Source: a virus (Duplodnaviria > Heunggongvirae > Uroviricota > Caudoviricetes). From it: a stretch of 10,381 nt of DNA. The stretch covers positions 1-10,381 of the IMG/VR virus record IMGVR_UViG_2531839265_000011; one strand, written 5' to 3'. Below are positions 1 through 10,381 of the stretch, one piece after another. The position numbers were made by a program, and so were the translations under genes. The notes beneath the pieces are model-generated. The model was not told where the DNA came from. It saw nothing but the letters and a program-made list of their open reading frames with translations, and did no database searches. Positions within the stretch are counted from its first letter, which is position 1, and every line of letters starts with the position of its first letter.

Positions 1-573
1 TTAGCAAATACCAAATGCTCGAATAGAACTCAAATCATCTAGGTTATTCAGTTCTTCCTTCATCTCCCGCTGACGCCGATAAATCTCATCGTTGCGATCG
101 ACCTGAGCCTGCGCCATTGCAGTAAGCAGCTCATCCAGTTTCTGCATCGACAGTTTCACCTGCTGGTTTTCCGCATCGCCCCATACCATGGTTTTTCGCG
201 CTGTGTCAGACTTTGATGCCATTACTGCCGGATAAAGACGAGCCATTGAGTCGGGGCCAGCGTTCCAGGTGCGACCGTTCCATTCGAACGTGAACGGCAG
301 TGCCTCCTGTTCTGTGCGCCATGCCTCGATTTCCCGCTTTTTGGCATCCTTCGCCGCGGCGATAAGTTCCGGCGTGACGGTGAACGGGGCGATTTCACCC
401 CATTTGCCGCTCTGCAACTCTTCCCAGATGCGTTGGCCTGTCGGGGCGGTATCATCTTGCATGGCGGTATACGGGACGAATTCCCTTTCACCTTCAAATA
501 ACACCTCGCAGTCAACCGCACCATTTTCGAGATAATGGGCGTTTCTGATGCCCTTTACCGCTCTGATTTTCAT
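1..573 (-). CDS. putative tail fibre assembly/chaperone-like protein paired with the second side tail fibre
   Basis: 190-aa ORF; ATG at 573-571 with AAGGAG 7 nt upstream; starts 14 nt after the TAA of the 654-aa fibre gene, the canonical position of a fibre chaperone; stop TAA at 3-1. Lacks the canonical Tfa C-terminal WP..P motif seen in the other Tfa (8518..9069), so the call is mainly positional. Confidence 0.5.
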   Translation of the reverse strand: MKIRAVKGIRNAHYLENGAVDCEVLFEGEREFVPYTAMQDDTAPTGQRIWEELQSGKWGEIAPFTVTPELIAAAKDAKKREIEAWRTEQEALPFTFEWNGRTWNAGPDSMARLYPAVMASKSDTARKTMVWGDAENQQVKLSMQKLDELLTAMAQAQVDRNDEIYRRQREMKEELNNLDDLSSIRAFGIC

Positions 574-587
574 GTTCTATCTCCTTG

Positions 588-2552
588 TTACTCAATGCGC
601 ACGAACAAACAGATAAAGCCTCTGTCGCCATACGTTCCACGATAACCTGACAGGGCCTGATAACGACCGGGAAAACTGAATGCACCAGCACCCCCCGCCT
701 TTACTGAAGGTGTGGAAACATATGTCCCGGAATTATTAATTGCACAGTCGATAGCCACAGGACCAAGTCGCGACCCCGCCACTACATCCCCAAGGCCAAT
801 TTTTATTTCCTTATCTCCTGCCGCTGTTCCCTGATAGACCGCGAGAATAAGAGAGCCAACTGCCGGATATTTGTAATATGAGGACGGGCCGTTGCCCGCC
901 GTCCGGGACAGCAGGAAGGCCAGCGAATCGCTGTCGTAAATGACGGGGCTTACTGTTGCATTCCAGTTATTTTCACTCCAGCGATAAGTCAGGCGATGAA
1001 TACTATGTTCGCCTTCGTAATACTGGTTAAAACACAGCAGCATTTTGAATTTGCGCGTTGTGTCTGATTCATCGTTATCAAAGGGCGACCACATCACATC
1101 AATAATGCCGTTAAATTTTGTGGTGCCAATCAGTAGCGAGGAAGAGTCCACAATACTGACCGCATAACGCCCCGGCGTGGCCTCTTTCAGCCATTCAGCA
1201 AAATCGGCCTGCCCGTTAAATGCCAGGGCTTCGGTGCTGGTAAATGCCTGACCGAATCCGTACATGCCGGACAGTGCCAGTCTGCCTGGTGTGCGGTCGC
1301 GGATATCGCTCTGGGGTTCCATCGTCGCAGCCGCTTTCAGTTCAAGCTCCGTGCGCATGGCCTCAGACGTGTCCAGCGCCAGTAATGCGCGGGCTTTTTC
1401 TGACAGCTGCGCCAGTAAAATCCGGCCCTCTGCACTGAAATAAGGCAGTGTGTTTTCTTCCGGTGTTATCTGGCTGACAGCCGTTAACACGTCATTAAGC
1501 GGCTGTTTACCTGCCAGTGCTTTAGTGACGGTTGTCGCAAAGTTCGGGTCATTACCCAGCGCCGCTGCCAGCTCGTTCAGCGTGTCGAGGGCTTCCGGTG
1601 ATGAGTCAACCAGCGCGGCGAGCAGTTTGCGGACAAATGCCGCGTTCGCGGTTTCCAGACCGACTGCATCGTCCGGTGGGGTTGGTGTGGTTGGCGTACC
1701 CGTGAACGCCGGGCTGTCCAGCGGCGCTTTTGTTTTCGTCTCGTCCATGACGGCTTTGACAGCCTTTGGTGTGGCGGCCAGTTCTTCGCTGTCGTTGTCT
1801 GTATCACTACAGAGTTGCACCAGGCCTTTTTGCGTCGTGCTGGCGCTGGTTCCTTTCAGGTCATCGACTATCCGTTGCGCCTCGTCCCTGTGCTGTTTCG
1901 CGTTCTGCTCGCTTTTTGCTGCTGCTTCGGCGCTGGCCTTTGCCTCGCCGGTCAGCGTTGCGGCTTCACCGAGTTTATCGACCGCTTTCTGGACTATCGT
2001 GTCAGCATCTTTGACCGCCTGTTCTGCGCGGGCCGCATCCTGTGTGGCAGATGACGCCAGTAACGCCACCTGCTTTTTGTCTTCGGCAACGGCTTCTGCG
2101 TTCTGCTGTACGTTATCCGCCAGCGTCTCGCAGTCGCTTTTAATTTGTTGCGCATCAGCGACATGTTTCCCGGCCTGTCGTTCGCTTTCCGCTGCCGCTT
2201 CCGCGCTCTGCTGCGCCTGCGCCACCATTTCCTCAAAGCGTTTCACTACATCCGGCTTTAAATCGCCTTCATCAAGGGCGGTCAGAAAGTCGTTCAGTGT
2301 GCCGGGCTTTGAATCGTCGTAAACCGAAATATCACCAACACAATATTCTCTTTCAATACATGACCGGAGATAAACGTCATATCTTCCGGTCTGGGCCTCA
2401 AATGCATATTCTCCTGCCGCCCCTGTCACTACTGTTGCCACCGTTCTCATGACCACTGCGGATGTATTCTGTCGGGCTTTCAGAATAATATGGTATCCGG
2501 ACATGGGGAGTCCCGTGCCATCCGTCAGCACACCCGAAATTAATACAGACAT
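588..2552 (-). CDS. side tail fibre protein, mosaic (Stf-type N-terminal domain, Ala-rich coiled coil, P2-H/Stf-type shaft motifs, distinct C-terminal domain)
   Basis: 654-aa ORF; ATG 2552-2550 with AGGA about 7 nt upstream. N-terminus MSVLISGVLTDGTG...ILKARQNTS...PGTLNDFL resembles the N-terminal domain of lambdoid prophage side tail fibres as I recall it; long Ala/Gln/Glu-rich coiled-coil region; central KGLVQL...ELAATPKAVKAVMDETKTKAPLDSPAFTGTPTTPTP...ALVDSSPEALDTLNELAAALGNDPNFATT block typical of P2 H / Stf fibres. Confidence 0.85.
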   Translation of the reverse strand: MSVLISGVLTDGTGLPMSGYHIILKARQNTSAVVMRTVATVVTGAAGEYAFEAQTGRYDVYLRSCIEREYCVGDISVYDDSKPGTLNDFLTALDEGDLKPDVVKRFEEMVAQAQQSAEAAAESERQAGKHVADAQQIKSDCETLADNVQQNAEAVAEDKKQVALLASSATQDAARAEQAVKDADTIVQKAVDKLGEAATLTGEAKASAEAAAKSEQNAKQHRDEAQRIVDDLKGTSASTTQKGLVQLCSDTDNDSEELAATPKAVKAVMDETKTKAPLDSPAFTGTPTTPTPPDDAVGLETANAAFVRKLLAALVDSSPEALDTLNELAAALGNDPNFATTVTKALAGKQPLNDVLTAVSQITPEENTLPYFSAEGRILLAQLSEKARALLALDTSEAMRTELELKAAATMEPQSDIRDRTPGRLALSGMYGFGQAFTSTEALAFNGQADFAEWLKEATPGRYAVSIVDSSSLLIGTTKFNGIIDVMWSPFDNDESDTTRKFKMLLCFNQYYEGEHSIHRLTYRWSENNWNATVSPVIYDSDSLAFLLSRTAGNGPSSYYKYPAVGSLILAVYQGTAAGDKEIKIGLGDVVAGSRLGPVAIDCAINNSGTYVSTPSVKAGGAGAFSFPGRYQALSGYRGTYGDRGFICLFVRIE

Positions 2553-2576
2553 TTTTATTTCCTGATTCAGAAAACA

Positions 2577-3665
2577 TTAACCAAAATAATTGACGCCTTT
2601 TTTCTTGCCACTGGCTTTCCCCTTTGCAGAAATATCCGTGGTCAGTGACAGATTCAGCGTAAATCCCTGTCCCGGTACCAGTGAAAACTCCACAGACTCA
2701 GCCTGCCAGTGATGGTCCTCACGCACACCAAATCCCTGCGTGACAAAACGCATCTCCGCCCCTGCTTTCAGCAGTTCCGGCCTGCAGGGCAACGTTATCG
2801 TCATCTGGCGTCCGGCTTTCTGCACACGTTTAACCTTCGACTCTGCACAGTGTTTTGCGGTGCCCTGGTCAGGCTGGGTAAACGGATGCCGCTTATCTGT
2901 TGACTCCACGTCAACTTTAACTTCACGTGTGCGTCCGTCACGGGCATCAAAATACCGGACCCCAACTTTCCCGCTCTTTTTATCCCCCTTCGCACCACCC
3001 GCAGCGCCCTGTCGCTCACCTTCACGATAATCCCAGTCTGATGCCATACCCGGCGTAATGGTTATCTCAGGCGCATTTCTGCCCCCCGTACTCTGTGATG
3101 CCCCGTATTCCAGAAATAACCAGTAGCCATTGGTCGGTTTACTGGTGGCGCCGTACATACCTGCAATGCGGGACAAGAGGGCAGCATCAGATTCTGATGA
3201 CTGCATCACCCACGGGATATGAATATCAGCAAGCACCGATGAGACGCGCGCCACCAGATTATTTTCAGTGGCGATGGTTTTCACCAGGTCGCCCAGTGTG
3301 ATATCGCTGAAAGCCCGGGTTTTCAGTGCGGTCACGTCTGCGCCATGTTTTGACGCATTCATGGGGGCTGCGGTGGCATAAATGGTGAGCCGGCGGGGAG
3401 GACCACCGCTTGCCACCTGACAGACGGTAAAACTGCCTTTATTGACCAGATTTCCGTTGAACCCCAGTCCCAGCGTTAGCACCGCGCCTTTCGGTGGCAA
3501 CGCCAGCGTCTCGCTGAACAGCGTTACCATCAGTTCATCGGACCGCTTTGTGCCAGCACCATTATCGGTATATCGCAACTCAGCCAGCCCACGTTTTATT
3601 GCCTTCGTGATATCCTGACCTTCCGCTGTCAGACTGAAATCCGGCTGATATTCATTCAGTCCCAT
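2577..3665 (-). CDS. gpD-like tail protein (P2 late control gene D family)
   Basis: 362-aa ORF; ATG 3665-3663 overlapping the end of the gpX-like gene by 10 nt; AAGGAG upstream; size, N-terminus (MGLNEYQPDFSLTAEGQDIT) and position at the end of the sheath-tube-chaperone-tape-measure-U-X block match gpD-type proteins of P2/phiCTX/R-pyocin clusters. Confidence 0.8.
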   Translation of the reverse strand: MGLNEYQPDFSLTAEGQDITKAIKRGLAELRYTDNGAGTKRSDELMVTLFSETLALPPKGAVLTLGLGFNGNLVNKGSFTVCQVASGGPPRRLTIYATAAPMNASKHGADVTALKTRAFSDITLGDLVKTIATENNLVARVSSVLADIHIPWVMQSSESDAALLSRIAGMYGATSKPTNGYWLFLEYGASQSTGGRNAPEITITPGMASDWDYREGERQGAAGGAKGDKKSGKVGVRYFDARDGRTREVKVDVESTDKRHPFTQPDQGTAKHCAESKVKRVQKAGRQMTITLPCRPELLKAGAEMRFVTQGFGVREDHHWQAESVEFSLVPGQGFTLNLSLTTDISAKGKASGKKKGVNYFG

Positions 3666-3874
3666 AACTGAAACGTCTCCTTCACTTCCGGTTCATATGT
3701 CCAGTCAGGCAACACGATTTCCACCCCGGCGGGATACACCGGACCAAAGTCAGCCAGCCCGGGATTGGCTTCCAGTACCGCCGCCAGTGACTGGTTAAGC
3801 CCGGTACTGCCATAGTGTCTCTGACAGATATCATCCAGCATATCGCCGTCAGTAGTCCGCCAGTTTTTCGCCAT
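3656..3874 (-). CDS. gpX-like small tail protein with LysM-like motif
   Basis: 72-aa ORF; ATG 3874-3872; sequence DMLDDICQRHYG...LAAVLEANPGLADFGPVYPAGVEIVLP has a LysM-like pattern; lies between the gpU-like and gpD-like genes as in phiCTX/R-pyocin-type tail clusters. Confidence 0.65.
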   Translation of the reverse strand: MAKNWRTTDGDMLDDICQRHYGSTGLNQSLAAVLEANPGLADFGPVYPAGVEIVLPDWTYEPEVKETFQLWD

Positions 3875-4343
3875 AGTATTTCAGCTCCAGTGTGAACGTT
3901 TTGTTCTTCGGCGCACCGCCGGGAAGAAAGGACGTGGTGTTATCTGAATAGGCGGTTGCCACGAAATACCCCATCACATCACCTGTGCTCGAGACCAGAA
4001 GATGCGGGGCCGGATTGTCATCCACCATCTGAACCAGTGTATCAAGGGCATCCATTCCCACACCGTCACGAAATCCCGCGTGCGCCATACCTTCAAGGGT
4101 TATTGTTCTGGCCCCCTTGCCGGTATACTGCAGCAGATCGTTTTTTCCGATAAGCTGTTGTTCATCCCATCGCCATTCCATCGTGCGCTTCATGGCGTTA
4201 TAAGCAGCAGTATCAATACTGAATTCAAACTCACCAAACGACAGCATGACGCGGGAGGCGACATCCGTTAATGATCCCACCGCGTCCCATGCTTCACGCT
4301 CAAGCCGGTTTACGCCCCAGCCCAGCAAATCCACCATATTCAC
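3849..4343 (-). CDS. gpU-like tail protein (tail terminator/tube-cap family)
   Basis: ORF-track frame 3849..4343, start as listed is GTG overlapping the tape-measure stop; a more plausible start is ATG 4337-4335 (GGGGGTG 3 nt upstream) or the internal ATG 4247-4245. Size and position immediately after the tape measure gene fit gpU. N-terminus uncertain. Confidence 0.6.
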   Translation of the reverse strand: MNMVDLLGWGVNRLEREAWDAVGSLTDVASRVMLSFGEFEFSIDTAAYNAMKRTMEWRWDEQQLIGKNDLLQYTGKGARTITLEGMAHAGFRDGVGMDALDTLVQMVDDNPAPHLLVSSTGDVMGYFVATAYSDNTTSFLPGGAPKNKTFTLELKYYGEKLADY

Positions 4344-5994
4344 CCCCAGAATGCATCGCCATCGGTCATGCGGGAACGCTGACCAAAATGAATATCTCCC
4401 AGATTTTTCGTTACCCTGTCAGCCAGTTGTCCGGCATCCTCGCCAGGCTTCTGAGTGATGTTAAATTCCGCCCGTATCTGATATGTGGGTTTTACTTCCA
4501 CCTGGCTGACACTGCCGGGGGTATACTGAAGAGCCGAGAGAGGATCCGAATTACCCTGCCCCTGAACTGCTGCAGGAAGTCCGTCAATATAGGTGCGGGA
4601 TTTCTCTTTTATCGCCTTAAAATCAGGTTCTTCTTTCGGCCCCAGCAGAGGGTCGAGAAATGCATCAAACTTTTTATCGTCATGATTCCAGGGGAGATAA
4701 CCGCGGGTGTCTTTATAGGCCTGTACAACCTGTTTTGTCAGGTCAGGATTTTGCCTGAGCAGTTCATCAAACCATTCACCCTGACCGTTTTTCTGCGCCA
4801 CTGCTCTCGCCAGCTCCGGCGACCCCATTTTTGCCAGATACTCCAGCACTTCCCGTCGGTCCTCTCGCGGATCATCCGCCAGCCCCCACTCAATGGCTTT
4901 TTGTGTAATTCCGGCAAGAACTTTTCCAAATTTCCACATCCAGGCAGCCATGTCGATCAGCGCCGGCAGGGCATCATCACGAATAAATGCCCGGATTTTT
5001 TTCCAGCCCACCATTCTTAAACCAGGCCGCAAGGTCATCCGTCACCTGTTGAATATGTGGGGCAAGTTCATTACCCAGCTGTCCGCTGATTTCATCAATG
5101 GAAGAACTCAGAACATTACGGAGATTTGACAGTGCCACATGTCCCTGAACTGCGCCATCAGCCCCTGCCTTTGTCACCAGGTTATAGCGTTTCTGCTCAC
5201 TGATAAGCTCCCGGTAAGTTTTCCCTGACAGACGCATCCAGGTCAGAATTTTATTGGCCTCACCACCGAACAACGCATCTGCCATTCCGGCAGCCACCTG
5301 TTCATTCTCCACCTGCAGTAAGCGATCAAATAAAAATTCGACCTGCTCCTGGTTGCTTTTCCCTGTCATCACCCCGGCTTTCAGTCCCAGTTTGCCAAAG
5401 ACCTCCTGAATGGCCCCTTTATCCGTGGCACCATTATCATCGTCAAAAACCTTGTTCCGGTACTCCTCAAACAGATCACCGATGTTTTCACCGTTCAGCC
5501 CCATCAGTCGGGCCAGAGAATCCCATGACGCATAGGTTTCATAATCCACCCCATAACTGCGGGCTATCCCTGCCCGCTCTGCCGTCTCCGTATTCCGGTT
5601 AAGCACAGCGGCAGTGCCCGCTGCCAGCGTCAACCCGGAACCAACCGAAAGCCCAAAACCGGTTTTAAGGACCGTCCCCGCCCGCCCTTTCCAGCGTTCC
5701 AGGCGTTCCGCGCGCGCCAGTTTACGGTTAAATTTGTCCTGCTCTCCGGTGGCATCATGAATTTTTTTACCCAGCTTTTCATACTGCTTTCGCAGATCAG
5801 TAATATCCTGTCCAGCCAGTACGCCAGCCTGAATTTTTCGTTTCAGTACGTCCTGCTGGCGTGTCAGGCGAGCCACTTCCTGTGTTGCCCCTGATAATCC
5901 GTGCTTCAGTCCATCAACCGATTTTTTTCCACGACGGATCTATCGTGCCTCCGATCCGGATATTCGCTTTAAGGTTATCGCCCACCGTTGCCAT
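4340..5994 (-). CDS. tail tape measure protein, reading frame interrupted twice at A7 runs (frameshifted gene or homopolymer sequencing error)
   Basis: Position directly after the E/E' chaperone; strong RBS (AGAGGAAG, 9-nt spacer) before ATG 5994-5992; three consecutive open segments (5994-5917, 5939-4980, 5041-4343) in different frames joined by single-nt shifts at A7 runs 5922-5928 and 4996-5002; Gly/Ala-rich hydrophobic stretch GFGLSVGSGLTLAAGTAAV typical of tape measure proteins; conceptual product about 548 aa. Confidence 0.6.
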
Positions 5995-6420
5995 AACGTT
6001 GCTTCCTCTCTTCCGACTCCGCCAGCATCATTGCCACAAAATCCGTATACGGCAGCGCCATCACATCTCCGGGAGACCACCCGAACCAGGCACCGGCACG
6101 CCGTATCGCTGTCAGGATGCTTTCTTCTTCCGCCGGACCGGCGGCAGCAAAAAAACATTAAACTGACGCTCCAGGGCCAGGTAATCACACGCTTCCATGT
6201 TCATCATGTCTGCCGCGTCCATCCCACACAGACCGGCAATCATATCCAGATCAGCCTCTGCTTCCGGTTTGTTACTCCGGCGATGCAACAGACGATCGCG
6301 GACAGTGGGCGCACGCATAGTGACGTGCGTGATCGTCTGTCCTGATGCGGTGACATACGGCACGGATAACACAATTTCCACGCTGCTGGCAGGAACGCTG
6401 TTTTTTTCCGACATAAGCAT
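5975..6420 (-). CDS. tail assembly chaperone E+E' fusion produced by programmed -1 ribosomal frameshift
   Basis: After a -1 slip at T_TTT_TTG (6154-6148) the -1 frame stays open for 57 codons (FFAAAGPAEEESILTAIRRAGAWFGWSPGDVMALPYTDFVAMMLAESEERKQRYGNGGR) to TAA 5977-5975, ending just inside the start of the tape measure gene; this is the standard E/E' (G/GT-type) arrangement. Confidence 0.6.
6112..6420 (-). CDS. tail assembly chaperone, gpE-like
   Basis: 102-aa ORF between tube and tape measure; AAGGAG at 6426-6421; first ATG at 6420-6418 is too close to the SD, so ATG 6414-6412 (6-nt spacer) is the likelier start; contains the T_TTT_TTG slippery heptamer 12 codons before its stop, as in P2 E. 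Confidence 0.75.
   Translation of the reverse strand: MLMSEKNSVPASSVEIVLSVPYVTASGQTITHVTMRAPTVRDRLLHRRSNKPEAEADLDMIAGLCGMDAADMMNMEACDYLALERQFNVFLLPPVRRKKKAS
6148..6154 (-). other. -1 programmed ribosomal frameshift slippery heptamer T_TTT_TTG
   Basis: Minus-strand sequence GTT TTT TTG in the E frame; heptamer X_XXY_YYZ with X=T, Y=T, Z=G, identical in form to the P2 E/E' site. Confidence 0.6.
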
Positions 6421-6473: not shown

Positions 6474-6968
6474 TTAAACCCGGATGATTTTTTTCAGATC
6501 CGCCAGAACATTAACGCCATTAATACGACGTACAAACTCCTCCGGAATAATGCAGATGGTTTCCACACCGTCGACAGCCTGGCGGTAATAACTCAGCGAC
6601 ATTTCCACCGTCACCGAGGCGTCTGCCTGCGATGTTGCCGGACGTGCATCCGGCGTGATACTGGTGATCATCCCCTGCAGGGTTTCCACCTGTCCGCTGG
6701 TCGCATTCCCCACCTGATAGCCCTGGCGGACAACAATCTCCGGCGAATAAAGCCCGGCCTGTAATCCCAGCAGCGTCAGCATGGCAACATCATAGCCATA
6801 AATCTTAAACGAACAGGTCAGCGCTTCCATGCCGTCATCCACTGCCACCGGTGCATCCATTGCGCCGGTTTTGATATCCACTGTCGTGATATTAATGGCT
6901 GGCGGCGTGTATTCATGCGCCCCCTGAAGGCGGATCCCGCCAGGAAGAAATAACGCCCATGCGCGCAA
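6474..6968 (-). CDS. tail tube protein (FII-like)
   Basis: 164-aa ORF directly after the sheath gene; C-terminal MSLSYYRQAVDGVETICIIPEEFVRRINGVNVLADL resembles the conserved C-terminal region of P2-type tube proteins as I recall them. The in-frame ORF has no ATG (only TTG at 6968-6966); a strongly RBS-backed ATG at 6991-6989 lies in another frame (see findings). Confidence 0.75.
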   Translation of the reverse strand: MRAWALFLPGGIRLQGAHEYTPPAINITTVDIKTGAMDAPVAVDDGMEALTCSFKIYGYDVAMLTLLGLQAGLYSPEIVVRQGYQVGNATSGQVETLQGMITSITPDARPATSQADASVTVEMSLSYYRQAVDGVETICIIPEEFVRRINGVNVLADLKKIIRV

Positions 6969-6987: not shown

Positions 6988-8463
6988 TCATACTGTCAGT
7001 TCCTCCAGCGCCAGTTTATTGTTAATCATTGCCCGCAGTGTCAGGCGCTCCAGTGGTGACTTCGGCCCAAAGTCATAATCAATATACAACTGCCCTGCCG
7101 CCAGGGTTTCTGCAGTGTTCAGTTCATCGTTCAGCCATGCACTGCCACCGTGGATCGCGCCCAGATTTTTAAGCTGACGCATATAGGCATTAATGCTGCC
7201 AAGAATGTCGTCTGCCACATCCCGATCAAGCGGGCGATCGACATAAGGCAGCATGGCCTCCTGGATGCTGTCCTCAATCACATCTGCAGTGCGGCGTACC
7301 GGCTCAAAACGCCACTGACTGTGGGATGTGCACAGACGGTTACCCCAGTGTTTAAAACCGTCATGGCGAATAATGGTGGAGATATTTTCCATGTTCAGCA
7401 GGTTTGCCGTGCAGTTCTGCTCCCCGAGAATAAACGTATCCACCTGCTCCAGACCGGTGATATTCATCACGTCCTGGTTTGATTTGGACCACCACCACCC
7501 TTTTTCGTAATCAATACGGGCACGCAGCCCGGCAGCACGAGCCGAATATGGACGAAATATCGTTTGCCCGCTGTCATCCGTCACTGACACGCGCGGACGC
7601 AGCAGCTCCACACGCCCACCAAATGACGCGCGCCGCTGAACCACATCCTGCGGTGTTGCCATTGAGGGCGAGTCAATATAGGCCACAGCCCGCAGCTTCG
7701 CGGCATACGTTTCCAGCGCCTTTGCCACGCCATCATCCTCACTGTACCCCGTGGCGATGAGGATGCGCGGTTGATAGCCTGTCACGCCCTTACTTTCTGT
7801 CAGCGCCTCCATGGCCTGAATCACCGCCGCACGCTGTTCGGCCTCTTTCGCCTTTGTTTTACTTTCTGCGCGCACCACAATCACCAGCGCCCCAGTCTGG
7901 TCAAAAATATCTCGCAGGGCCGGGTATAATGTTCCGGCTGTGCCCAGTTTCCCGGCCTGAGTAATGGCCCCTGCCACCACCACTGGTGTATTGACCGGGA
8001 ACGCCTCATCTTCTCCGCCGGATAACGTCAGGCTGAACGGCAACACCACTTTATTTTCAGCGTCTCCTGCATTCAGGGTGCTGACAGCCGCCGTCACAGG
8101 CGAATCCCCCAGCGCATTCACCACTTCAGTCACACGGTCCGCCGTGGCGTTAACCTGGCTGTGTTCGTCCGTCCCCAGTGTTATCGTCAGGGTCGTACCT
8201 TTCAGCGAGGCCACTGTCTGCGCATTTTGTTCTGTGGCAGCCACAGCAACAACCGAAATCTTATTACCGGCCCGACCTTCCTGTTTCGCCGTGAAATCCA
8301 GCGCCGTTCCCAGCAGCCAGGAGCCGGCTGTGCCGGAAGCGCACACACCACCAGAGGCGTCCGGCGCTGTCCCCACCAGGCCAATCACTGCCGTGGAGAT
8401 GGTCTGCACGGCAACCGTGCCTGTCGTCAGTTCAATGGTTTCAACACCATGTAATCCGGACAT
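6988..8463 (-). CDS. tail sheath protein (FI-like)
   Basis: 491-aa ORF; ATG 8463-8461 with GGGAGA 5 nt upstream; N-terminus MSGLHGVETIELTTGTVAVQTISTAVIGLVGTAPDA, central PRILIATGYSEDDGVAKALETYAAKLRAVAYI, GWWWSKSNQ, IRHDGFKHWGNR and C-terminal AETLAAGQLYIDYDFGPKSPLERLTLRAMI blocks match the conserved segments of P2 FI-type sheath proteins from memory. Confidence 0.9.
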   Translation of the reverse strand: MSGLHGVETIELTTGTVAVQTISTAVIGLVGTAPDASGGVCASGTAGSWLLGTALDFTAKQEGRAGNKISVVAVAATEQNAQTVASLKGTTLTITLGTDEHSQVNATADRVTEVVNALGDSPVTAAVSTLNAGDAENKVVLPFSLTLSGGEDEAFPVNTPVVVAGAITQAGKLGTAGTLYPALRDIFDQTGALVIVVRAESKTKAKEAEQRAAVIQAMEALTESKGVTGYQPRILIATGYSEDDGVAKALETYAAKLRAVAYIDSPSMATPQDVVQRRASFGGRVELLRPRVSVTDDSGQTIFRPYSARAAGLRARIDYEKGWWWSKSNQDVMNITGLEQVDTFILGEQNCTANLLNMENISTIIRHDGFKHWGNRLCTSHSQWRFEPVRRTADVIEDSIQEAMLPYVDRPLDRDVADDILGSINAYMRQLKNLGAIHGGSAWLNDELNTAETLAAGQLYIDYDFGPKSPLERLTLRAMINNKLALEELTV

Positions 8464-8498: not shown

Positions 8499-8517
8499 CA
8501 GATGATTAACTTCTTTT

Positions 8518-9069
8518 TCAGGTATTTTGTGGCTGCTCAGGCCAGCTAATATTGTTGTATGTGGTCTTATCCGTAATAGCGCTGAAATCCATCGCCTGCA
8601 GCGATTTCGCGTAAATGCGGTACGCTTTCAGCTTCTCCCTGTCTTCGTCACTGATTAATCCCGGCAGCAGGTCTTTTTCCCATTCGCTGGTCATGATGCT
8701 GACCTGTTTTAACAGAGCATCGCGCTCATCTTCCGCTTTAAGTTTGTAGTCGAAGACAAATTTATCGTCGCGGTAAAACCAGTAACCAGGCACGGTTATA
8801 CGGCGATTAGCGGTAATATCAGGAACTTCAATAACACTGGCGTTACGGGGTTCAATGCCTGTCACATCCTTACCGACCCACACCACGCGCCCGTCTCCGG
8901 TGTAAACCATTTTTATGGTGTCACTGGCAAAATTCTTCTGTTCTTCATACCAGTTTTTGTCATCTTCCGAAAAAAGCCAGGTGATACCATGTTGTTTTGT
9001 CATCTGATATTGTTCTGCGGTTTTCGGATTGCCCGCAGTAATATTTTTAAATGCAACATTGTTAAACAC
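8518..9069 (-). CDS. tail fibre assembly protein (Tfa, gpG-like)
   Basis: 183-aa ORF starting (GTG 9069-9067) 8 nt inside the end of the upstream fibre gene; C-terminus ...TTYNNISWPEQPQNT carries the W-P-x-x-P ending characteristic of Tfa chaperones; position immediately downstream of a fibre gene. Confidence 0.8.
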   Translation of the reverse strand: MFNNVAFKNITAGNPKTAEQYQMTKQHGITWLFSEDDKNWYEEQKNFASDTIKMVYTGDGRVVWVGKDVTGIEPRNASVIEVPDITANRRITVPGYWFYRDDKFVFDYKLKAEDERDALLKQVSIMTSEWEKDLLPGLISDEDREKLKAYRIYAKSLQAMDFSAITDKTTYNNISWPEQPQNT

Positions 9070-10381
9070 TCGCCACGTTATACCAGGTGCCGTTAATCAG
9101 TTTCTGAAGCGGACGGTAATACACGCCGCCGATGTTATCTGCCGAATTACTTCCGGTTTCCTGCACATTAATACCGGATAACCCGTGGCCTGAAGGTGAG
9201 CGAAATGTCCAGGATACCTGGTTACCTCCCGGGTTGTAATACATTTCGGAACCATAACGCACATCCTGTACGCCGCCATTTCGCTGCTGATAACGGGCAT
9301 CGAAATTTCCATAGTTTGATGGGGTCATCTGTCCGTTTACAGCGAATGTGATACTGCCATCGGTATTTCTCTGGCTGTAAAAATGCCAGCCGGAATCATC
9401 ACCAAGCTCTGCAACTACAGGTCGGGATGAATTACCCCATAAATTAAACGTTGCGTTTTTCGTCGAGTTGTTGGCGCTGGATAACGTGAATTTTTTAGCA
9501 TTTCCGGCCTGAATATTTTTTAACGCTATCGCCACACCATTCTGGAAACGAAATACATGCTGTCCATTCGCATAAACATCCAGAATGCCGTCGCCGTTTT
9601 GTTTTATACCTGTATCGTTATCCCCGAAAGCAATTGAGTTTCCGCCCAGCGCGTTCTGAACGCCGATACCCAGCGCACCATTGACCTGAGAACCGCCGCC
9701 AACAGACACTTTATGCGACATAGATATTTCACCCGTCCGCAGATTAATAGTGAACGGGCGAAGTGGACCAATATCGCCATTTTCACCTTGGTTTTCCTGT
9801 GTTGGAATAAGGTGCAGGCACTCTTCCGAACGACGAAAAATCAGCCCAAAGGCTTCGTTGAAAATCCTCAGCGCATTAACACCACGGATTTTCAGTTCCC
9901 CGGTCATGGTGTCACCATCACGCTGAACGGCATTTTTTGCCTTGTCCACCGTGGGTTTTAATCCGAGGTTTTCAACAGCCTCATCCTTGTCTTCCACATC
10001 CGAAAGATTCTTTTTTCGTTGCAGATAGCGTCTGTCTCCGATTTCCTGAGTAATAATGGCCCTGTCCGGATCAACTTCCAGCACCACGTTTTGTGCGTGC
10101 GTCAGCCCAAGAACCAGCGTCAGAATAACTTCCTTGATAACGGAGTCCGTCTGGTCTGGTAAAAAGGTGTCGGGATAACGTCCGTACGCGATAAGCGTAC
10201 CTCTGTCGCTGATCATCCCCAGTTCACGAAGGGTTTTACCGGGGTATGATTTACAGTCAATCACAATATCCCCGCTGATGAAGCCCTCCTCCACCGCACC
10301 GTCGGAAAAGGGTTCCTGCCCGAATTCGCCGTACAACGATGTCATTGCTGCCATTTCATCCGGCGTGGATGGCAATGCCCG
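9062..10381 (-). CDS. tail fibre protein, P2 gpH-like (5' end truncated by window edge)
   Basis: Open to the window edge (no stop between 10375 and 10381; the listed M is a TTG, so the true start is probably upstream). N-terminal region (TLRELGMISDRGTLIAYG...) resembles the P2 H baseplate-attachment region; DGDTMTGEL collar motif; C-terminal region (NALGGNSIAFGDNDTGIKQNGDGILDVYANGQHVFRFQNGVAIALKNIQAG...VVAELGDDSGWHFYSQRNTDGSITFAVNGQM...LINGTWYNVASV) matches the conserved distal domain shared by P2 H / Mu S-type fibres as I recall them. Confidence 0.85.
   Translation of the reverse strand, partial: RALPSTPDEMAAMTSLYGEFGQEPFSDGAVEEGFISGDIVIDCKSYPGKTLRELGMISDRGTLIAYGRYPDTFLPDQTDSVIKEVILTLVLGLTHAQNVVLEVDPDRAIITQEIGDRRYLQRKKNLSDVEDKDEAVENLGLKPTVDKAKNAVQRDGDTMTGELKIRGVNALRIFNEAFGLIFRRSEECLHLIPTQENQGENGDIGPLRPFTINLRTGEISMSHKVSVGGGSQVNGALGIGVQNALGGNSIAFGDNDTGIKQNGDGILDVYANGQHVFRFQNGVAIALKNIQAGNAKKFTLSSANNSTKNATFNLWGNSSRPVVAELGDDSGWHFYSQRNTDGSITFAVNGQMTPSNYGNFDARYQQRNGGVQDVRYGSEMYYNPGGNQVSWTFRSPSGHGLSGINVQETGSNSADNIGGVYYRPLQKLINGTWYNVASV

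Follow-up and report, generated by a model that had tools for sequence, protein, structure and literature searches.

A 10,381-nucleotide stretch of DNA from a tailed phage (IMG/VR record IMGVR_UViG_2531839265_000011, Caudoviricetes), here called the window, carries the tail genes of a prophage whose contractile tail is of the P2 type. Its gpD gene, which codes for a tail hub protein, is followed at once by a gene for a second tail fibre of 654 amino acids (aa) and by a gene for a 190-aa protein of the DUF4376 family; a first, gpH-type fibre (fibre 1) is encoded upstream of the sheath gene. We consider it likely that this cassette is the terminal host-recognition module of a lambdoid prophage, made up of a second fibre of the type of the lambda side tail fibre Stf and its DUF4376 chaperone. 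The pair of a lambda-Stf-type fibre and a DUF4376 gene after gpD is a regular module that is already present in phiP27 and Rac-SA53, and the sole surprising element is the docking of its collar-type anchor on a P2-type tail. The cassette and the gene before it are laid out as follows, with lengths in nucleotides (nt).

3665..2577, minus strand: gpD-like tail/baseplate hub gene, the last of the P2-order tail module (weak PF05954 match; phrog_52, E 3e-95).
2553..2576, minus strand: 24-nt spacer between gpD and fibre with a purine-rich ribosome-binding stretch (..CAGGAAATAAAA ATG), read from the sequence.
2552..588, minus strand: second fibre gene, 654 aa, lambda-Stf-type side tail fibre (Pfam, PDB, PHROGs).
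2268..2552, minus strand: fibre residues 1-95, collar/anchor domain of the Stf N-terminal type (PF08400, PDB).
1848..2267, minus strand: fibre residues ~96-235, linker and Ala/Glu/Gln-rich proximal rod (alignment to the proximal coiled coil of lambda Stf).
1305..1841, minus strand: fibre residues ~238-416, Phage_fiber_2 repeat and conserved '..LDTLNELAAALGNDPNFATT..' shaft block (PF03406, PDB).
591..1304, minus strand: fibre residues ~417-654, variable C-terminal receptor-binding part (breakpoint of the E. coli alignments).
574..587, minus strand: 14-nt spacer between fibre and DUF4376 gene with an AAGGAG ribosome-binding site, read from the sequence.
1..573, minus strand: DUF4376 protein, 190 aa, stop codon at 1-3 (PF14301, phrog_1141).

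All genes of the window lie on the minus strand. An earlier note on this DNA, made from the sequence alone, had described a tightly coupled arrangement on one strand, with the fibre gene starting 24 nt after the gpD stop and the chaperone gene 14 nt further on, and these coordinates all hold. A scan for promoter-like or terminator-like sites between gpD and the fibre gene found none above shuffled expectation. Because the gaps measure only 24 and 14 nt, both genes have their own ribosome-binding sites and no terminator intervenes, the fibre and DUF4376 genes would be read through from the late tail operon.

Sequence searches show that the product of the 654-aa gene is a side tail fibre of the lambda Stf type; its genomic position and the first two-thirds of the protein place it in the Stf-type, PF08400-anchored side-fibre family. 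In Pfam, residues 1-133 match phage_tail_N (PF08400; E 9.4e-56, 188 bits against a cut-off of 26.6 bits), whereas the P2 gpH-type baseplate anchor PF12571 finds no match in this protein. The full length matches the phage family phrog_2636 (E 1e-218), and NCBIfam holds no model matching the fibre, the DUF4376 protein or gpD. Among solved structures, a sequence search aligned residues 1-93 with the lambda Stf N-domain (PDB 9e7m/9mgh, E 7.9e-18) and residues 1-193 with residues 1-184 of the collar spike gp40 of the Vibrio myophage XM1 (PDB 7kjk, chain 7kjk_A3, E 2.6e-7). The N-terminus is thus of the lambdoid side-tail-fibre type that the earlier note had recognised, with 47% identity to lambda over residues 1-95 and an E of 8e-18 to 9e7m. 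The P2-H/Stf-type shaft block that it had also described is equally present: PF03406 (Phage_fiber_2) matches residues 238-277 (E 4.2e-16), the repeat is 70% identical to residues 356-395 of lambda orf-401, residues 263-362 match the tail collar fibre gp4 (PDB 9d93, E 5.9e-10), and residues 225-280 match Mu S (PDB 5yvq, E 3.9e-5). The whole block of residues 238-416 is common to P2 H, Mu S and lambda Stf-type fibres. Between anchor and shaft, residues ~96-235 are rich in Ala, Glu and Gln and align to the proximal rod of lambda at 29% identity; from this composition and alignment they probably form a trimeric coiled coil.

The C-terminal part of the fibre is of another kind. Its AlphaFold2 (AF2) model is mostly beta, with a predicted local distance difference test score (pLDDT) of 74; the last ~240 aa gave no convincing match to a solved fold or solved tip and none to lambda orf-314 beyond residue 54. 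Homologues of this part come from Escherichia and Salmonella only, and the exact 654-aa protein occurs on 7 public contigs in the same context. Many partial NCBI homologues of the C-terminal part are named 'shikimate transporter, partial' and one is named 'phage portal protein', names that are evidently propagated misannotations. Opposite the Ala-rich rod runs a 290-aa open reading frame (ORF) on the plus strand (1450..2322), in a region (1251-2250) with a GC content of 58-59% and an AT skew down to -0.5; we rejected it as a gene, since it has no family support and is a by-product of GCN-rich coding on the opposite strand.

The 190-aa protein lacks the canonical Tfa C-terminus, as had been noticed beforehand, and carries DUF4376 in its place. 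Pfam finds PF14301 at residues 73-178 (E 4.7e-15, 56.4 bits against a cut-off of 25 bits) and no match to Caudo_TAP (PF02413), and BLASTP finds no similarity to the Tfa encoded in the window (E 0.68) or to lambda Tfa (E 0.53). The protein matches the full-length family phrog_1141 (E 7e-88) and has homologues in 1798 clusters. DUF4376 proteins are experimentally supported fibre chaperones in Alteromonas phages V22 (gp27) and A5 (gp9), and in Campylobacter CJIE1 prophages the DUF4376 gene downstream of the H-fibre is needed for a functional fibre (PMC7289586, PMC10579305, PMC7882524). These proteins resemble the one studied here in their C-terminal DUF4376, their size (~190-240 aa) and the position of their genes directly downstream of a fibre gene; they differ in serving fibres with other N-terminal anchors, for example of the DUF3751/P2-H type, and the link to them is the Pfam domain only. 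From family membership and gene position we infer that the 190-aa protein is the cognate, DUF4376-class chaperone of the second fibre. The checks of both proteins at the domain level, which the earlier note had suggested, have therefore led to a fibre family and a fibre-chaperone family. Homology between DUF4376 and the Tfa of Mu has been claimed (PMC7882524). Our AF2 model of the 190-aa protein, built from a shallow alignment, is alpha/beta with a long C-terminal helix (pLDDT 84); a Foldseek search with this monomer, a weak test given the shallow alignment, returned no significant PDB match and did not recover Mu Tfa, and the model weakly resembles prefoldin beta (probability 0.84, E 0.6). 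The claimed homology is thus not supported by this modelling, weak as the test is. The family phrog_11571 (223 positions) matches both the N-terminal part of the Tfa encoded in the window (residues 26-116) and the C-terminal, DUF4376 part of the 190-aa protein (residues 55-187). There are therefore hybrid chaperones that combine a Tfa-type N-half with a DUF4376 C-half, and Tfa and DUF4376 C-domains may be interchangeable.

Judged by the gene content of its complete relatives, this is a lambdoid prophage in which a head of the lambda type is combined with a contractile tail in P2 order, and not a P2-type genome as it had first been framed; only its tail module is P2-like. The relatives carry regulation and lysis genes (a Q-type antiterminator, RusA, holins and an endolysin), a lambda-type head (small and large terminase, a gpW-like joining protein, portal, S49 protease, decoration protein, major capsid protein and FI) and a P2-order tail (V, W, J, I, H, Tfa, sheath, tube, E, T, U, X and D), after which come the fibre and DUF4376 genes. 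Since these relatives are lambdoid, the cassette stands in the normal stf-tfa position of lambda, which follows the last tail gene and precedes the b region and attachment site. In complete relatives it is always the last element before host DNA (copies at ompW and at a tRNA-Ser gene). The window itself is the exact reverse complement of positions 2172..12552 of our locus L009 (GCA_000243195.1, scaffold JH594577.1), and ~235 nt beyond position 1 host chromosome genes start, with potB followed by potA, pepT, roxA, phoQ/phoP and purB, so that the cassette is the last gene pair of the prophage. Host genes follow the DUF4376 stop in this source contig and in 9 other distinct contexts. The earlier note had raised a second prophage just beyond position 1; the flank holds these host genes instead.

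The related late region, at 92-95% identity, is found in complete E. coli genomes at other chromosomal sites. The copy in SC407 adjoins a truncated ompW (L002 16967-17092), with three small accessory genes before the host DNA, and that in CEA224S lies at a tRNA-Ser gene beside hyaA (L019 19230-19317); the source copy lies beside potB (L009 12553-12800), and potC was not seen in its flank. The presence of one late region at three chromosomal sites therefore implies different integrase modules on one structural backbone. Some 40 nt beyond position 1, downstream of the DUF4376 stop (L009 12590-12621), there is a hairpin with a perfect 15-bp stem (CTCTCCCCGACTATT GG AATAGTCGGGGAGAG) and no T-run, which may terminate transcription or have a connection with the attachment site.

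Within its lineage the cassette is constant. Among 5,426 complete E. coli genomes, counting those in which at least 80% of a query was covered, gpD is present in 74, and a junction query running from the 3' part of gpD through the spacer to nt 400 of the fibre gene is likewise present in 74; the fibre is therefore a fixed part of the operon in this lineage. The junction, spacer included, is conserved at the three integration sites, the 24-nt spacer also in SC407. With one listed match, H98 at 88.9%, left aside, N-terminal matches of at least 89% nucleotide identity are all contiguous with gpD, and N-terminal matches located elsewhere in E. coli reach at most 82%. Variable presence among related prophages, which the earlier note had proposed to look for, is thus not what we found.

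Outside this lineage the picture is different. The nearest gpD relatives among sequenced phages are those of Hafnia phage yong2 (49% identity) and Citrobacter phage Chris1 (47%), and a profile scan of one genome per species added 18 further relatives (44-51%) from Enterobacter, Citrobacter, Scandinavium, Pantoea, Rosenbergiella, Erwinia, Rouxiella, Providencia, Serratia and Tatumella. These 18 loci came from an alignment-based rescan; a scan of genome contigs with the single gpD protein gave none. In the 6 kb downstream of gpD, all 18 lack phage_tail_N and DUF4376 genes. Like the prophage studied here, yong2, Chris1 and the 18 Enterobacterales prophages combine a lambda-type head with a P2-like contractile tail (gpD 44-51% and sheath ~51-62% identical), but their gene order is V-sheath-tube-E-T-U-X-D-W-J-I-H-Tfa, they end in ...U-X-D-W-J-I-H-Tfa without the cassette, and they have one fibre system, which is invertible in Chris1. 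From these comparisons it appears that the E. coli/Shigella lineage of this tail type acquired the cassette. The earlier idea of an added cassette thus survives for the lineage as a whole, given its absence from yong2, Chris1 and all 18 relatives, and fails as regards variable presence within the lineage, where 74 genomes have gpD and 74 the junction.

The same cassette is found on other contractile tails. Fibre residues 1-133 are 80-90% identical in only four phage-database records, and ~300 others lie below 60%, mostly lambdoid siphophages including lambda. The close relatives of the N-terminus are phiP27, Rac-SA53 and the 'Actinobacillus' phage pPE4, and E. coli W/KO11 carries the Rac-SA53 type. 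In phiP27 (L56/L57), Rac-SA53 (tail3/tail4), pPE4 (gp69/gp70) and W/KO11, as here, a phage_tail_N fibre and a DUF4376 protein are encoded by the final pair of late genes before the attachment site of a lambdoid phage with a contractile tail and a fibre 1 with tail-collar domain and Tfa; the chaperones are 71-94% identical. Unlike here, these tails have the Mu order, and the cassette lies 23 nt after the Tfa gene of fibre 1 and not after gpD. Moreover, the anchor of the phiP27/Rac-SA53 group is a different variant, 74-77% identical over residues 1-95. Homology of the cassette starts at the ATG, and the upstream spacers differ (24 nt here against 23 nt in phiP27, Rac-SA53 and pPE4). The combination is therefore not without precedent, as it is found after other contractile-tail modules in phiP27 (GenBank record of 2002) and in Rac-SA53. 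In our literature search the second fibres of phiP27 and Rac-SA53 appeared as annotated tail fibres only, with no study of their function or structure.

Two side observations belong with these relatives. The pPE4 record (L014, PP818812.1, 'Actinobacillus phage vB_Apl-pPE4') is ~83% identical in nucleotides to E. coli prophage DNA and has the tail/fibre layout of Rac-SA53, which is unexpected in a phage of a Pasteurellaceae host and points to contamination or to an incorrect host assignment. The full-length Rac-site prophages (L018/L020: Rac-SA53, E. coli W) have a contractile tail, a Mu-like order and a terminal phage_tail_N fibre. StfR of the K-12 Rac remnant would then presumably be a relic of a myophage second fibre, not of a siphophage one.

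The fibre is a mosaic, as the earlier note had held, and its parts have moved separately. Among relatives its length ranges from 490 to 1061 aa and the first ~225 residues are conserved. Identities to the fibre of the window differ by part as follows.

Anchor, residues 1-95: SC407 and CEA224S, 97-98%; phiP27, Rac-SA53, pPE4 and KO11, 74-77%; lambda, 47%.
Rod, residues 96-225: SC407 and CEA224S, 92-93%; Rac-SA53, pPE4 and KO11, 92-97%; phiP27, 61%; lambda, 29%.
C-terminal ~240 aa: SC407, 88%; KO11, 86%; Rac-SA53, 44%; phiP27, 28%; lambda, no match.

Because the rod is closer to those of Rac-SA53, pPE4 and KO11 than the anchor is, a recombination joint lies at the boundary between anchor and rod, and in these alignments the variant of the anchor follows the tail type (P2-order or Mu-order). 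A second breakpoint is seen near window position 1303, from which point onward alone many E. coli genomes can be aligned. The C-terminal part and the chaperone gene (window 1-1300) occur as one block in 62 genomes (at least 80% query cover), and comparison of the sequences indicates that the last ~240 residues and the chaperone gene are a separately exchanged block; the chaperone of phiP27 is 76% identical while the C-terminus of its fibre is only 28% identical. The anchor domain has pairwise ratios of nonsynonymous to synonymous substitution (dN/dS) of 0.06-0.18; over residues 1-225 they are 0.09-0.34, and in the chaperone gene 0.10-0.24. Purifying selection acts on the anchor domain, which shows no decay. 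We also considered an invertible or phase-variable segment of the Mu G or P1 C type and rejected it: no invertase is present in the complete relatives, and in the window itself there are no opposed fibre ORFs, no inverted repeats were found in 1-2700 and tandem repeats were trivial.

Two solved homologues bear on how such an anchor is held. In Ur-lambda, 12 Stf chains contribute their N-domains (residues 1-94) to a collar that encircles the tail where the last gpV ring meets the gpM ring, and flexible linkers lead to four trimeric fibres, which give faster adsorption via OmpC and are dispensable (PMC12617516). In the myophage XM1, six gp40 trimers place 18 immunoglobulin-like (Ig-like) N-domains on the neck, followed by a coiled coil of ~100 residues; in each trimer two N-domains bind the head-completion protein gp4 and the third binds the tail terminator gp5 (PMC10457771). 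It follows from these collar precedents that the domain would be a ring-forming adaptor between three-fold fibres and six-fold axial rings. The earlier note had found it puzzling that a lambdoid anchor should attach to a contractile baseplate, a puzzle that dissolves if one considers that the homologous domain is a collar former on tube or neck rings and not a baseplate socket.

Neither precedent is a complete match. Lambda Stf/Tfa shares with the system studied here a homologous collar domain, a linker and a rod that here is probably a coiled coil, the fibre block, the position at the end of the late operon and, probably, the role of an accessory second receptor-binding protein. Lambda, however, has a non-contractile tail, a T4 gp37-like, OmpC-binding tip and a Caudo_TAP Tfa, whereas here the tail is contractile (sheath, tube, gpU, gpX, gpD), the C-terminal part is unrelated and the chaperone is of the DUF4376 type. 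XM1 gp40 has an Ig-like N-domain followed by a long trimeric coiled coil, and it belongs to a contractile-tail phage with a second host-sensing appendage; it is more distant, its C-terminus is tailspike-like, its head and neck proteins are unrelated, and docking at the neck, demonstrated for XM1, would here be an extrapolation.

On these grounds we envisage the following assembly. The DUF4376 protein would fold the fibre from its C-terminus, and the N-domains, three per fibre trimer, would together form a ring that attaches the fibres to a six-fold ring exposed on the virion, with no P2-H-type baseplate socket. Beside the gpH-type fibre anchored in the baseplate, the virion would then have this fibre as a second receptor-binding protein, which would speed or broaden adsorption as Stf does in Ur-lambda. 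The earlier note had wondered about such a second receptor-binding protein; a second fibre with its own putative chaperone is indeed encoded in the sequence, and receptor binding would be its role. As the docking site we would prefer the neck, with its head-completion and tail-terminator rings, an analogy to which we give somewhat less than even probability; a site near the baseplate is possible at a lower probability, and some other arrangement, or none, is less probable again. The preference for the neck arises because a sheathed tail buries the junction of tube and hub, because a ring of 12-18 domains fits the width of tube or neck, and because of the precedent of XM1. More tentatively still, the Stf collar domain could be a general plug-in adaptor that has been re-tuned to carry a second fibre set on contractile tails, most plausibly as a neck collar, with variants for P2-order and Mu-order tails.

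Several observations weigh against this account. Since the anchor matches lambda Stf (E 8e-18) more strongly than XM1 gp40 (E 3e-7), similarity does not favour the neck. A neck-mounted fibre, with an estimated length of 35-45 nm, would not reach the plane of the baseplate on a tail set by a 550-aa tape measure. All-against-all BLASTP among the P2-tail prophage, phiP27 and Rac-SA53 found no common neck, sheath or baseplate protein; the only virion proteins common to the three are the distal part of fibre 1, Tfa, fibre 2 and the DUF4376 protein. Since phiP27 and Rac-SA53 have one anchor variant but by BLASTP no neck, sheath or baseplate protein in common, a strict lock-and-key partner is not evident. 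The chaperone role comes from family membership and gene position, the DUF4376 model having no match to any solved chaperone fold. The source assembly carries frameshifts in neighbouring tail genes, which are probably sequencing errors, although this prophage could be defective. Finally, no virion structure, proteomics or genetics was found in the literature for this phage family, and assembly into particles and the docking site are predictions.

The strongest competitor, which we still regard as unlikely, is that the second receptor-binding fibre docks distally as in lambda, at the baseplate periphery or the junction of hub and tube, giving two sets of fibres round the baseplate and no neck collar. 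The highest similarity is indeed to lambda Stf, which is located at the tail tip, the length of the fibre suits a reach from the baseplate rather than from the neck, and the fibre gene follows that of gpD, a hub component. However, the junction of tube and hub in a contractile tail is buried by sheath and wedges, 12-18 small domains fit a ring of tube or neck width (a geometric inference), the sole solved myophage homologue is neck-bound, and the baseplate proteins are entirely different between phages that share an anchor variant.

It is quite improbable that the cassette is a leftover of a siphovirus-type lambdoid ancestor, carried along or expressed, with a fibre that is not assembled on the contractile-tail virion. 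The nearest relatives of the tail module do manage with a single fibre, phages sharing the anchor have no detectable common docking protein, and lambda PaPa has lost Stf and still forms plaques (PMC12617516). Against this stand the intact ORFs, the low dN/dS of the anchor (0.06-0.18) and the retention of the fibre (74 and 74 genomes). The anchor variant, moreover, segregates with tail type, with a joint exactly at the domain boundary, and the active modular exchange of receptor-binding part and chaperone is typical of a host-selected exposed part.

That the second fibre branches from fibre 1 or its Tfa would explain its carriage by very different tails, and the list of virion proteins common to the three prophages named above would suit it; we nevertheless find this very hard to credit, as the common distal part of fibre 1 is more simply accounted for if phages that share a host swap receptor-binding modules, as the N-domains of both solved homologues sit on axial rings and not on fibres, and as the Tfa of Rac-SA53 is only 36% identical to that of the P2-tail group. 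The notion that the cassette belongs to a separate siphovirus-type lambdoid prophage abutting gpD, which gains some colour from the lambdoid siphophages that make up most phage records with this type of N-domain, can be set aside almost entirely, as potB, potA, pepT and phoQP lie ~235 nt past the DUF4376 stop with no lambdoid genes beyond the cassette, and the gpD-fibre junction with its spacer recurs at three integration sites.

The rest of the window consists of the following genes of the tail module.

10375..9062, minus strand: truncated tail-collar fibre (fibre 1), its N-terminus cut by the window end.
9069..8518, minus strand: Caudo_TAP Tfa of fibre 1 (Pfam).
8463..6988, minus strand: sheath (ORF, Pfam).
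6968..6474, minus strand: tube (ORF, Pfam).
6420..6112, minus strand: gpE-type chaperone (ORF, Pfam).
5876..4340, minus strand: tape measure, in two ORFs (ORF, Pfam).
4343..3849, minus strand: gpU (ORF, Pfam).
3874..3656, minus strand: gpX (ORF, Pfam).

The gpH-like fibre and Tfa upstream of the sheath gene are thus where they had been placed before, with the PF12571 tail-collar domain found by Pfam in 9062..10375 and Caudo_TAP in 8518..9069. Fibre 1 has no N-terminus because the right end of the window (10376-10381 onward; L009 2103-2171) adjoins a run of N, a scaffold gap in JH594577.1. Its distal part and the Tfa gene (8500-10000) have a lower GC content (~46%), consistent with a foreign origin of that module. 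A T7G slippery run at 6146-6153 on the minus strand, near the end of the gpE-type chaperone gene, is the expected site of the P2-type E/E' -1 frameshift, and a gap of ~230 nt precedes the tape-measure gene. Relatives of gpD in E. coli are annotated 'late control protein / VgrG-Pvc8 family'.

The frameshifts of the source assembly become apparent on comparison with a near-identical contig (L010, 54 mismatches in 12.8 kb). Four single-base length differences separate the two, all in runs of A5-A8: at ~5002 and ~5928 in the tape measure, at ~6979 at the tube start and at ~9049 at the Tfa start. Two of them split the tape-measure gene into ORFs of 299 and 232 aa, where relatives have a single ORF of 550 aa, and in the host flank pepT, phoQ and mnmA are likewise split. 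These frameshifts are probably homopolymer sequencing errors in a draft assembly, and possibly real decay.

There is nothing anomalous in a fibre gene that follows gpD: in a widespread family of prophages with lambda heads and P2 tails it is the regular module of the stf position. The family is found in E. coli, including Shiga toxin-producing (STEC) and enterotoxigenic (ETEC) strains, and in Shigella-like genomes. With two independent fibre systems in these phages, the gpH-type fibre alone cannot predict host range. The solved homologues of the anchor sit at the tube tip of a siphophage (Ur-lambda) and at the neck of a myophage (XM1), and knowing the corresponding site on a P2-type tail would be useful for fibre engineering. 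If the reading of the collar domain as an adaptor is true, many temperate myophages of E. coli and Shigella, including the toxin-converting phiP27 and LT-II phages, would carry an unrecognised receptor-binding fibre mounted at the neck or the side, and its docking rules could guide the transfer of Stf-type fibres to tailocins or therapeutic myophages.

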